Assembly (NCBI GenBank): GCA_046483985.1
Contig: JAWOCD010000090.1
Span: 32,001-96,000 of the forward strand
From: Promethearchaeia archaeon
GTDB lineage: Archaea > Asgardarchaeota > Lokiarchaeia > Sigyniarchaeales > SOKP01
Direction of reading: 5' to 3'
Length of the DNA: 64,000 nucleotides
A program made the translations under genes and the position numbers. The notes beneath the pieces were generated by a model that ran no database searches, was not told the DNA's origin, and was given only the letters and a program-made list of their open reading frames with translations. Shown one piece after another: positions 21,424 through 63,187 of the stretch (position 1 is the stretch's first letter; every line of letters begins with the position of its first letter).

Positions 21424-21545
21424 ATAATTGAAAATAGTTCAAATTTTACAAAACGTAATAAACTTTTTTTTATTTTTTTATAACATTTTGTTACATTCCC
21501 GATATAGAATCTGAAAGTAATTATATTATAAAAGAATATGACGGT

Positions 21546-21861
21546 TGAGATTTATACCCGCCCTTCTGTCTTACTTACGTCACCATAAGCAAGTGGAGCA
21601 TCCAACTAAGCGGCCTACCTAAAGCTCGTTCCAAGTTCTCATAGCTTTCATTTGGCCTTGCACCAAGGTCTCAATTCGTTCCAACCATTCCTTCTTGCGA
21701 TTTCCTTGGCTTATTTCCAAATCATTAATTTCTGCAAAAAGGCGGTGCCGTTTCTATTATTGAGACATGGTTCTCACCATAGTAACTTCCGTTACTTCTT
21801 GCTTGGAAATTGTGGGGCGAGGTTCCTCAGCGAAATTTTTCGCCGTTGGCTCCAAATCTCA
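21546..21861 (-). ncRNA. rnpB: Archaeal RNase P RNA
   Basis: Minus strand: P1 gagattt/aaatctc; CR-I gaggaacctcgccccac pairs with CR-V acagaagggcgggta; internal agaaacggcac, ggtgcaaggccaaat, ggtaggccgcttag. Confidence 0.92.
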
Positions 21862-21931
21862 CACGTCAATAATTTAAAGGAAATTGCACTATTTAAACTC
21901 TTGGGTTAGAAACTCTAAGGGTTTAAACAGT

Positions 21932-59175: not shown

Positions 59176-61113
59176 ATGCAAAATGTAACAAATCATCGGA
59201 TTGGAGTCTACTGTTGTCAATGAGGAATAAACATTAAAGGCAAAATTGACACCGCAGAATTAGCAGAATATGGGAAATCTTTTGATGAAGTCGTTATATC
59301 CAAGACGCACCCGTTCTTATGCACTGAAAGCGGTCAAAACGAAATAATAGAAGATATTGAGGAGAAAAATCTCACCGCAATTGTTGCAACGGCTTGAACC
59401 CCACGAACCCATGAACCAATTTACAGAGACACAATTTCAAAAACGAATATTAGTCCTTATCATTTTGAATTGGTTAATGTCCGAGAACATTGTAGTTGGG
59501 TCACAGAATCAAGGGAAGAAGCGATGGAAAAGGCAAAAGGATTATTACGAGGCGGTATCGAACGCGTCAAACTTCTAGACATTGTGCCCATAAGAACGGT
59601 GCCTATTGAAAGATCCACATTGGTGGTGGGTGGTGGAATTGCCGGAATGAATGCTGCCTTAGATCTTGCAAATCAAGGAATCAAAGTCTATCTGGTGGAA
59701 AGAAAAACAACAATTGGGGGCCGTATGGCTCAGCTGGACCGCACATTTCCCACGGATGATTGCAGTATCTGAATTTGCGGGCCGAAAATGTTGGAAGTCA
59801 ACAGGCATGAAAACATCGAAATTATAAGTTATGCAGAAGTTAAGGAAGTAAGCGGATATGTGGGTAATTACGAAGTTACCGTTGAAAAAAAGCCGAGATA
59901 TGTGACAGACGATTGTAATGGATGCGGAGCTTGTGCAGATGTCTGTCCCATCTACACGGAAAACTATTTTGATGAACATTTAGGAGTACGCAAAACCATT
60001 GATATTGCCTTCGGGCAAGCTGTTCCTTTTCTCTATGATATTCATCGGGACTCATGTGTTGAATGTTTTAGTTGTGTGGATGAATGCGAACTGGATGCGA
60101 TAGATTTCTCCCAAAAAGCTGAGGATATCCACATAAAGGTGGGATCAATTATTATTGCGACGGGATGGGACATCTATGAACCTTATGGCGAATATGGTTA
60201 TGGCGAATATGAAAATGTGGTTCATCAAGCCCAATTAGAACGAATGTTAGCCCCAAACGGACCACTAGGAGGTCATGTACATCGGGTTTCGGACGAGAAG
60301 ACGTTGGAGGAAATTGTGTTTATTCAATGTGTGGGAAGTCGGCAAAAAGGAAGGACCTATTGTAGCGGAATCTGTTGCATGTTGGCATTAAAGAATGCAA
60401 AATTACTAAAAGAAGAATTTCCTGAGGCAAATATCACTATTTGCTATATTGATGTGAGAACAAATGAGAAGGGTTTTGAAGAATACTATCAGCGTGCAAA
60501 AGAATCGGGTATTCGTATGATAAGAGGAAAAGTGGGAGATATAAAAGAGGATCCGGAAACAAAGTGCGTAGATATTAGAGTGTACTCATCTTTAACAGAC
60601 GAGATCATCCATATTGATGCAGATTTGCTCATTCTTTCTTCGGCCGTCTTACCTTCTAATGGCACCGAACAAATTGCTTCAGTATTAAATTTGGATGTCG
60701 ATACGAACGGATTTTTAACCGAATCGCACTTTGGTTTAATGCCCCAAGAAACTAAAACAAAAGGGATATTTATTGCAGGGTTTGCTCAAGGCCCAAAAAA
60801 TATTGCTTATTCGGTTTCCCAAGCACGAGCTGCTGCAAGTAAAGTGGCTGAATTAACGTCTCCAGGAGAAATTGATTTAGAACTTATTATCGCAGAAATA
60901 GATGAGGAACATTGTATTGGGTGTGGCAGATGCGAGCGGGAATGCCCGAATAGTGCAATCAGTATTGAGGTTGATAGCGCAATAGTTGATGAAATAAACT
61001 GTGAGGGGTGCGGTATCTGTGCTACATGTTGTCCAACTGAAGCTATTGATATTCGCTACTTTAGAGATGAGCAATTATATGCGCAAATTGAAGGAATAAT
61101 TGGAGGGGTTTAA
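59176..61113 (+). CDS. hdrA: Heterodisulfide reductase subunit A, selenoprotein with 3 in-frame UGA (codons 16, 74, 199)
   Basis: One frame: RIGVYCCQ-U-G (59221), VATA-U-TPRTHE (59395), NVREHCSW, GGGIAG, TFPTDDCSI-U-I (59770), then ORF 59788..61113. Alternative starts at 59122 and 59164. Confidence 0.93.
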
Positions 61114-61117
61114 AACT

Positions 61118-61573
61118 ATGGACAATAATTACCAAATATTGTGTTTTGCTTGCTTGAAATGAGGTTATTCAGCTGCAGATTTAGCAGGCGTATCCAGAAT
61201 GAAATATCCCTCTGCCGTGAAGATAGTGAAGGTTCTCTGTACAGGAAGAGTGGATGCGAAATATATACTTTATGCGATCAAAGCTGGTGCCGACGGTGTA
61301 ATGGTGGTGGGATGAAGACCTCACGAGTGCCAATTTAAAAAAGGGAACTTCACAGCCCAAAAACACGTGGATTTTGTTAACCGTATTCTGGAAAGAAGAG
61401 GATTTGGAAGCCATAGGGTTAATATGTACTGGCTGAGCTCTGCGGAAGCTGAGAAGCTGGTTCAAAGCGTTGAGGATGCTTACGAAAAAGTGAAAATGGC
61501 TGGTATCAATCCGATAAAAGCTAAAAAACGGAATCAAGAAAAAGAAAAAGAAACGGCTCCCTTTGTAGGATGA
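61118..61573 (+). CDS. mvhD: MvhD/VhuD [2Fe-2S] subunit, selenoprotein with 2 in-frame UGA (codons 15, 66)
   Basis: FACLK-U-GYSAADLAG (61160), LCTGRVD, GADGVMVVG-U-RPHECQF (61313), WLSSAE. Confidence 0.93.
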
Positions 61574-61620
61574 AGCTTATAAAAAAATAGTAGTTATAAG
61601 CGGACCAACCTTGCAATGGG
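61559..61620 (+). promoter_or_regulatory. Eukaryote-like SECIS element
   Basis: AUGAA (61570-74), helix gcuuauaa/uuauaagc around an A-rich 11-nt loop, GGAC (61602-05), lower helix ccc-uuuguagg/ccuugcaa-uggg. Confidence 0.8.
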
Positions 61621-61687
61621 TGGGAGTGTAAAAATTTACATTTAAAATAATGGATTTATCAAGACAAAGGAAATAAGGAAAAGATAT

Positions 61688-63187
61688 ATGGTTCAAAAAA
61701 TAGAAAAAGACGTATTTTCGGATTTTTCTTCAAAAGAATTAATGGATGCAACTTATTGGGCTGCCCAAAACTTCCAAATTAGGGGTTTTTATGAAGCAAA
61801 GGAAGACATTCTTAAATGCGGCAAGTTTTCTGAAGAGCAATTCTTTGAGATTTTTGATACAATGGTTGATGCCGAAACTGAGCGGAAGATCATCTTGGCA
61901 CGATTGCGGAAATTTAATGATTTACTTTCTCTGAACCAGATTGTTGATCGGTTTCCGGAATTTCCACGGGAACAAGTGATTCGCAATGTGATCTATCTAA
62001 AAGAACAAGGATTTATAGAAGAGATTGAAGAAATCAAAACCAAAAAGATTATGAAAAAAGTAAAAGGTGAGGAGAAGGAAATAGAGTCAAAGCAATACTT
62101 CTATAAATATCAACCAAAAAGTCTTTCCGACGATCATTACGAGCATTACTTTACCCCCGTTTCACTGATATATGAAGCCGGCGTCTGCTCTAATTGTGGC
62201 TGGTGTTCTTCTATTTGTCCGGTCGATGCCGTTAAGATGGATCCTGAGACTCTAGAGATAGATGATGATTTATGCATTAAATGCGGCTTGTGTTATTCAG
62301 TCTGTCCCCGATCCTTTTCTATCGACCGAGTGTATGAGAATATAGCACATTTGGATTCAGCCATCACATTTTCGGAAAAAGTCGGAGCCTATTTAAATAT
62401 GTATTCTGGAACCACATCTAAAAAGCAAATTAAAGAGGTTCGACAGGACGGCGGGATTGTTACCTCGCTATTTGCATATTTATTGGAGGAAGACTTAGTA
62501 GATGCCATTATTGCGGTTCAGCACTCAAATGATCCTTGGCGACCCGAACCCGTTATCGTGGAGACTATCTCAAATCTCTATAAAACAGCAGGCACGAAAT
62601 ATGCAAACGCGCCAGTATTAAGCATTATTGATGCAGCTCAAGAGTATGAAAGGATTGCTATAGTGGGTGTTCCGTGTATGGTAAAAGCTCTCTATAAAGG
62701 TGCGCTTTACCCCATGGGATCACCCTTTTTTAAGAACATAAAATATATCATCGGGCTCTTTTGTATGGAATCCTTTTCCTATGCAGCGATTGTTGATTTA
62801 ATACAAGAAAAATTCGACCAAGACATCAGCCAACTGACGAAGATGAATATCGATAAGGGAAAATTCATAATAAATTTACAATCTGGAGAGCAAATGACAG
62901 TTCCCTTAAAAGAAATCAATTCTTATGCACGGGACCAATGTCATTTCTGCGAGGATCTTACTTCCGAATACGCCGACATCTCAGTAGGCTCAATCGGATC
63001 TCCGGGGGGAAGATCGACGGTAATTACCAGAACCGAGAATGGAGAAGACATCTATCAAGGTGCCATAAGCAAGGGATACATTGATTCAAAACCAATAGAT
63101 AAGGTTAAACCTGGTCAATTTCTTGTAGAAAAAATCGCGGGTATAAAACGAAAGAAATGTAAAACGATTAATTTAACAAAAAACTAG
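61688..63187 (+). CDS. FrhB-family protein with N-terminal helical/wHTH domain and 2x[4Fe-4S]
   Basis: CSNCGWCSSICP, QDGGIVT, AGTKY, VGVPC, GLFCMESF, DISVGSIGS. Confidence 0.9.
   Translation: MVQKIEKDVFSDFSSKELMDATYWAAQNFQIRGFYEAKEDILKCGKFSEEQFFEIFDTMVDAETERKIILARLRKFNDLLSLNQIVDRFPEFPREQVIRNVIYLKEQGFIEEIEEIKTKKIMKKVKGEEKEIESKQYFYKYQPKSLSDDHYEHYFTPVSLIYEAGVCSNCGWCSSICPVDAVKMDPETLEIDDDLCIKCGLCYSVCPRSFSIDRVYENIAHLDSAITFSEKVGAYLNMYSGTTSKKQIKEVRQDGGIVTSLFAYLLEEDLVDAIIAVQHSNDPWRPEPVIVETISNLYKTAGTKYANAPVLSIIDAAQEYERIAIVGVPCMVKALYKGALYPMGSPFFKNIKYIIGLFCMESFSYAAIVDLIQEKFDQDISQLTKMNIDKGKFIINLQSGEQMTVPLKEINSYARDQCHFCEDLTSEYADISVGSIGSPGGRSTVITRTENGEDIYQGAISKGYIDSKPIDKVKPGQFLVEKIAGIKRKKCKTINLTKN

Follow-up and report, generated by a model that had tools for sequence, protein, structure and literature searches.

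The selenoprotein genes hdrA and vhuD (mvhD) share one lokiSECIS, a type I, eukaryote-like SECIS element of the Asgard archaea, and the UGA at which vhuD ends is at the same time the UGA of that element's core. The reading that we favor, with a probability of roughly 85%, is that this element, common to the bicistron, directs Sec insertion at the five UGA codons upstream of it, that the core UGA most likely terminates translation of vhuD, and that the coincidence of stop and core is the tolerated result of packing a SECIS against the end of a gene, not a required device. The overlap is regarded as merely tolerated because it has been lost repeatedly among orthologs and is nearly absent from paralogs.

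The gene pair and its SECIS element

The window (the whole 64,000-nt stretch of DNA that was analyzed) contains the two genes in tandem, vhuD starting four bases past hdrA; the coordinates of all features are collected in Table 1. Translated with TGA read as Sec, vhuD has in-frame UGA at codons 15 (61160-62) and 66 (61313-15), the two Sec sites already known in VhuD, and meets its first stop of any kind at TGA 61571-73. Two in-frame TGA codons are also found in the vhuD orthologs of 60 of 61 related genomes, and the genome has a tRNA-Sec with anticodon TCA. The same translation gives hdrA three Sec-UGA codons (codons 16, 74 and 199, at 59221-23, 59395-97 and 59770-72) and a TAA stop at 61111-13, that is, a non-UGA stop, which agrees with the text of Mariotti 2016 (PMC4989117): there, hdrA stops are UAA or UAG, while those of vhuD vary, UGA included, and coding sequence and element overlap at the gene end. 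The five upstream UGA codons (three in hdrA, two in vhuD) lie 256 to about 2350 nt from the element, whose predicted function is to direct Sec insertion at them.

Table 1. Features of the hdrA-vhuD locus and its SECIS element, with one further RNA gene of the window
Feature	Position	Strand	Basis
Archaeal RNase P RNA	21542-21865	-	Rfam RF00373, 141 bits, E 1.2e-39
hdrA selenoprotein gene	59176..61113	+	translation with TGA=U
vhuD/mvhD selenoprotein gene	61118..61573	+	sequence, translation with TGA=U
Whole SECIS, three arms P1 + P2 + P3	61556..61627	+	covariance model match, covariation
P1 5' strand GCUCCC (vhuD Ala-Pro codons); partner 61622-61627	61556..61561	+	model alignment
Linker UUUGUAGG (codons Phe-Val-G of Gly)	61562..61569	+	alignments
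AUGA core; U-G-A 61571-73 is the vhuD stop codon	61570..61573	+	invariant in 18/18 aligned orthologs; in frame
P2 5' arm GCUUAUAA; final three bases are the in-frame UAA 61580-82	61575..61582	+	sequence, alignment
Apical loop AAAAAUAGUAG, 11 nt, AAAAA first, AG last	61583..61593	+	sequence; fits lokiSECIS definition
P2 3' arm UUAUAAGC	61594..61601	+	alignment, covariation
3' core half G-GA-C; G 61603 faces A 61573, A 61604 faces G 61572	61602..61605	+	alignment
P3 side hairpin AACC/GGGU, one A.G mismatch, loop UUGCAAU	61607..61621	+	model alignment
P1 3' strand GGGAGU	61622..61627	+	model alignment, covariation

The initial annotation had put the terminal TGA of vhuD in AUGAA (61570-74), followed by an 8-bp helix, an AAAAA-led loop and GGAC, and had proposed a eukaryote-like SECIS in which one triplet is both stop codon and structural core. 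All of these components are where it placed them: the U-G-A of AUGA is in frame and is the first stop, and P2 is a perfect 8-bp helix (61575-82 with 61594-601). The lokiSECIS is defined, in the text of Mariotti 2016 (PMC4989117), as AUGA, a stem of nine positions, a loop of 11 nt (the first five A-rich, the last a G preceded by A), and then GA. The window's element fits this definition feature by feature. Counted as a nine-position stem, P2 comprises eight Watson-Crick pairs and a basal A.G (61574/61602), a first position that is non-canonical in most elements of the genome; GA (or AA) followed by C is conserved 3' of the stem across the aligned orthologs and is here GA 61603-04 and then C.

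How the stop codon would contribute to the core can be read from the same layout. Of its bases, G 61572 and A 61573 would enter the two sheared G.A pairs. The near-invariant G 61568 and C 61605 flank a 3-nt bulge, G69 A70 U71, together with the G.A/A.G pair, and G 61568 could pair with C 61605 below the bulge. The sequence thus laid out (G68, then G69 A70 U71, then G72 A73, opposite C05, then A04 G03; last two digits of positions 615xx and 616xx) is compatible with a K-turn, in which the stop would supply the last base of the bulge as well as both bulged-strand bases of the sheared pairs. The bases of this putative K-turn core are without covariation because they are near-invariant.

Directly 3' of the SECIS lies a small A/U-rich hairpin (61628-61650; GUGUAAA...UUUACAU in folds), and after it, about 40 nt before the start of an frhB-like gene at 61688, the stretch TTTAAAATAA, which may be the promoter of the frhB-like gene itself.

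Conservation of the fold

A covariance model (R1) trained on 18 orthologous vhuD 3' ends, the window's own sequence included, finds one element in the 64-kb window (61541-61635, 78.6 bits; the runner-up scores 11.6 bits), while 36 metagenome and genome loci outside the training set score 73-94 bits with the same model. A better SECIS elsewhere on the hdrA-vhuD transcript was thus sought with this model throughout the window, and none was found; as the single element within 64 kb, the one behind vhuD must therefore also serve the three UGA codons of hdrA.

Scoring with a SECIS covariance model, one of the checks proposed in the initial annotation, has accordingly had a divided outcome, since the Rfam library gave no SECIS match. 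Searched at gathering scores over the whole window, Rfam returns no SECIS family, and a search of 61100-61750 at E values up to 10 yields no SECIS and only chance matches to snoRNA and lncRNA families; the curated Rfam model for the eukaryotic SECIS (SECIS_1) thus gives no match to the element. These null results are not counted against the element because Rfam is without a model for an element of this kind. SECISearch3 also fails on Asgard elements, according to the text of Huang 2024 (PMC11227280).

Alignment of the vhuD 3' ends across relatives, the other check proposed at the outset, does reveal the compensatory changes that were looked for. On a plain MAFFT alignment, 99% of P2 is paired and 6 of its 8 pairs show compensatory changes; taking P1, P2 and P3 together, 84.5% of cells are paired, a figure that drops to 42-52% if the partners are shifted by 1-3 columns, and 12 of the 18 pairs show double changes. 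In the model-aligned set of 58 distinct sequences, which leans towards the structure because it was fitted to the model's structure, the corresponding figures are 88.7% paired and double changes in 17 of the 18 pairs. Compensatory changes occur in all six pairs of P1 among these 58 sequences; the inner two pairs of P3 are C-G in 54-58 of the 58, and its outer pairs covary. (A technical note: RNAalifold, run on the plain MAFFT alignment, recovers P2 alone; indels in the linker shift the MAFFT columns, so that P1 and P3 emerge only with an explicit structure.)

The single-sequence minimum free energy (MFE) fold is modestly better than that of shuffles (z = -1.78). It contains a lower helix, UUGUAGG/CC-UGCAA, in which the U-G of the stop is paired to C-A, and this pairing was rejected: relatives keep P1 and a separate P3 instead. 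The initial annotation's proposal of a lower helix built partly from the last vhuD codons therefore holds with one correction. The Ala-Pro codons do form the closing strand, and the conserved helix to which they contribute is P1, GCUCCC (61556-61) with GGGAGU (61622-27).

A third arm

The element is three-armed, not two-armed. P3 (61607-10 paired with 61618-21) stands directly past GAC, and a hairpin occupies its position in all 13 elements of the genome, which lie behind several unrelated genes; in these 13 the P3 loop holds a GC dinucleotide and a closing helix encloses the whole. (Besides the window, 61607-61621, the contigs concerned are C8, C18, C24, C32, C37, C42, C95, C97, C101 and C107.) The GC of the loop is conserved: 82 of the 97 distinct elements in the collected loci have a P3-type hairpin whose loop contains GC, as do 2.6% of shuffled flanks. 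In the three-way type of K-turn, the k-junction, a third helix departs from the non-bulged strand immediately past the G.A pairs, and the window's element, with P3 following its G.A pairs, is likened to it from sequence layout alone.

Published texts describe a two-helix model for the element (PMC4989117, PMC11227280). Neither P3 nor a three-way junction is mentioned in the main texts of Mariotti 2016 (PMC4989117), Huang 2024 (PMC11227280) and a 2026 review.

Stop codon and SECIS core

Is the coincidence of stop and core a rule for vhuD genes? Let d be the distance in nt from the first base of the vhuD stop codon to the core UGA, positive when the stop lies upstream, so that d = 0 denotes exact overlap. 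Within the ortholog group (identity of at least 59%, from related genomes and metagenomes), d = 0 at 41 of 58 loci, or in 31 of 47 distinct proteins, and the stop otherwise lies 4-19 nt upstream, with d = 4 (UGA-AUGA), 5 (UAG-N-AUGA), 7, 17, 18 and 19. On a maximum-likelihood tree the d = 0 state has changed at least 7 times, 4 of these changes being forced by strongly supported branches. The nearest relative of the window's vhuD has d = 4 (UGA-AUGA); the deepest branches of the ortholog tree have d = 14, 18 and 19. Paralogous Sec-vhuD genes are at d = 0 in only 1 of 53 cases and at d = 5 (UAG-N-AUGA) in 18 of 53; in the window's own genome, none of three Sec-vhuD paralogs has the overlap, and the window's element is the sole d = 0 case among the 13 elements. 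The survey of the 53 paralogs rules out the overlap as a general rule for vhuD. What is general is the closeness of the stop to the core, not exact overlap: in every vhuD group the stop is within -4 to +30 nt of the core, and terminating ribosomes therefore always disturb at least P1.

The special status that the initial annotation had accorded to the overlap is not supported by this comparison. Overlap is common but optional, and not needed for the element, because it has been lost at least 4-7 times among the orthologs and is found in just one of the 53 paralogs. Its retention at 71% could reflect some selection for the overlap, or equally no more than descent with the same reading frame, or selective pressure on the protein's C-terminal tail.

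Two kinds of variant can be recorded here. Four of the 53 paralogs stop past the core, at a UAA in the P2 arm that lies 4 nt downstream of the core UGA: at these loci (L100, L107, L109 and L111, paralogous Sec-vhuD genes of related genomes) the frame crosses AUGA as AAU-GAA and ends at the UAA in the 5' arm of the stem, and translation past the core is therefore tolerated. In the orthologous vhuD loci of one related genus (L021-L024) the upper part of the element is longer and type II-like, with a ministem and a bulge rich in A; their stop is a UGA directly before AUGA (d = 4), and P1 and P3 are retained.

What happens at the core UGA

Why should this UGA be read as a stop when five others upstream would be read as Sec? 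The proposed answer is one of geometry. The frame of vhuD runs into the 5' half of the element, Ala-Pro forming the P1 strand and Phe-Val-Gly the linker and bulge. With the core UGA in the A site, P1 would already be unwound and most of the 5' arm of P2 would be inside the mRNA channel, if footprint dimensions taken from bacterial and eukaryotic ribosomes are applied. No folded SECIS would then be left to recruit the Sec machinery at the core UGA, which would be read as stop, and the element would refold after each terminating ribosome. We infer such a cycle of melting, termination at the core UGA and refolding. The initial annotation had argued that this UGA is read as a stop because the ribosome melts the element, and that recoding is lost for a short time at each termination; on this geometry, that is plausible.

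One can combine these elements into a more ambitious scheme, in which the three-way SECIS (P1, the K-turn stem P2, and P3) has its 5' closing strand routinely translated, the terminating ribosome acts as a reset switch for the operon's sole recoding signal, P3 is a docking site for an archaeal SECIS-binding factor, and the stop/core coincidence is one setting of a tunable coupling between ribosome and SECIS. According to the literature, in the texts covered here, no SBP2 is known in Asgard archaea. As a whole, this combined scheme is an unlikely one.

Still a little less credible is the proposal that exact overlap is a selected regulatory device: termination of vhuD would unfold the sole SECIS and so gate or meter Sec insertion at the five UGA codons, and could space ribosomes or couple the output of HdrA and VhuD. 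It can point to the persistence of d = 0 at 41 of 58 ortholog loci despite variation in sequence and length of the Lys/Glu-rich tail just upstream, and to the fact that P1 is disturbed wherever vhuD stops within the -4 to +30 nt range, that is, in every group. But the related loci are non-independent samples, and the element would be unfolded just as well by a stop anywhere up to about 15 nt upstream; coincidence of the triplets therefore adds nothing specific. A selected role for the exact coincidence is also unlikely because of the repeated losses, at least 4-7 in the ortholog clade, the closest relative included, and because, among paralogs of the same genomes, the overlap is present in just 1 of 53 and in none of the three of the window's genome.

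That the core UGA is itself decoded as Sec, with VhuD ending at UAA 61580-82 and a C-terminus Sec-Ser-Leu, is very improbable. The in-frame UAA recurs 9 nt past the core UGA in 39 of the 41 d = 0 orthologs, and the organism has the Sec machinery, as such a reading would demand; but the UAA, at stem positions 7-9, is part of the stem consensus (CUUAUAA / UUAUAAG), and it is kept in 12 of the 13 orthologs that have a type I stem and a stop upstream of the core, out of frame in all but one (d = 18). Relatives that stop upstream are without a tail of this kind, no second SECIS is present in the 64-kb window, and the element that would be needed would be unwound with the codon in the A site. The "back-up" stop that the initial annotation saw in this UAA is discarded: the triplet belongs to the stem consensus regardless of frame.

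There is a negligible probability that we are dealing with no SECIS at all, but with a hairpin that arose by chance or terminates transcription: set against the absence of a matching Rfam family even at E values up to 10 and a single-sequence z of only -1.78 are the invariant AUGA...GA and A-rich loop motif, strong covariation in three helices, a constant association with UGA-containing genes, the fit to the published lokiSECIS definition, and the lack of a T run downstream.

The reading given at the outset thus stands, with a shared lokiSECIS, a core UGA that most likely terminates, and an overlap that is tolerated.

Other elements in the genome

A simple pattern scan identifies 12 other elements of the same shape in the genome, each behind an ORF with an in-frame UGA, and seven SECIS-linked ORFs other than vhuD were put through a Pfam scan in which no family was found. 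Three paralogous ORFs, each about 150 aa long and with a lokiSECIS behind it, have adjacent in-frame UGAs (C18:75230(-), C95:49135(+) and C101:87265(+); motifs D-U-U, G-C-U-U and S-U-G-U-U; loci L119:136-591:-, L117:337-828:+ and L118:434-861:+). These tandem-UGA ORFs, which have no Pfam family, may represent a tandem-Sec selenoprotein family outside the seven Asgard selenoprotein families named in the text of Huang 2024 (PMC11227280). Two further ORFs, about 310 aa in length and carrying a membrane anchor at the C-terminus, have an in-frame UGA and a lokiSECIS at the gene end (C37:48133(-) and C97:43833(+); loci L120:101-1066:- and L121:507-1424:+) and give no significant match in Pfam. The reading frame of the C37 copy appears to continue across AUGA and to end at a UAA where the P2 arm meets the apical loop.

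A lokiSECIS also lies behind small ORFs with in-frame UGA at C8:27198(+), C107:2040(+) and C24:25180(+) (loci L123, L122 and L124). The small lokiSECIS-linked ORFs comprise one of 96 aa, membrane-anchored, with G-G-U, and one of 131 aa with T-T-U-T, and neither belongs to a Pfam family. Upstream of the element at C24:25180 there is no convincing selenoprotein ORF, and a PrxL gene with a SECIS of its own lies about 600 nt further on.

Relation to known SECIS elements

The closest counterpart is the lokiSECIS of the HdrA-VhuD tandems of Lokiarchaeota, where, in the text of Mariotti 2016 (PMC4989117), one element 3' of vhuD serves both genes. The window's element is the same in motif, stem, loop, sharing and overlap with the coding sequence, and nothing essential differs; its P1 and P3 are undescribed in that paper's main text. 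The overlap itself, whose novelty the initial annotation had implied, is likewise on record: AUGA serving as stop in Lokiarchaeota was published in 2016, together with the argument that proximity keeps such a UGA a stop (PMC4989117), and Huang 2024 (PMC11227280) describes in its text the same coincidence of stop codon and SECIS core, with a proximity argument for the non-recoded UGA, for vhuU instead of vhuD.

With the eukaryotic type I SECIS, the element has in common the AUGA...GA quartet layout and an apical loop with unpaired A's; like that SECIS, it would serve several UGA codons from a distance, and a minimum spacing between UGA and SECIS is presumed. It differs in its shorter upper stem, in its extra side hairpin and in that the Rfam models are blind to it; and where eukaryotic SECIS elements reside in long 3' UTRs, this one abuts or overlaps coding sequence. 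In being translated, and presumably unfolded by each ribosome and refolded for reuse, it resembles the bacterial SECIS, which is inside the coding sequence directly after the Sec-UGA. The bacterial element, however, acts on the UGA immediately upstream, whereas the window's element most likely leaves its neighboring UGA unrecoded and has its targets 0.26-2.35 kb upstream. Among the archaea, the VhuD SECIS of Methanococcales and Methanopyrus resembles it in that AUGA/GAC flanks the main stem (text of Mariotti 2016, PMC4989117); unlike the window's element, the euryarchaeal SECIS keeps the GAA_A bulge and GC-rich stems.

Implications

The overlap of stop and core at vhuD is a clean example of a published principle, not a new one, and its value is therefore modest. 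It nonetheless provides a well-conserved natural case, in the lineage closest to the eukaryotes, of one triplet that is both the stop codon and the G.A core of a recoding signal. What is added here is that the overlap is the majority state within one group of vhuD orthologs (41 of 58) and is yet labile and dispensable. The natural variants, with stops 4, 5, 7 or 17-19 nt upstream or 4 nt downstream, are ready-made test constructs, and the conserved third arm may aid the search for the missing archaeal SECIS-binding protein.
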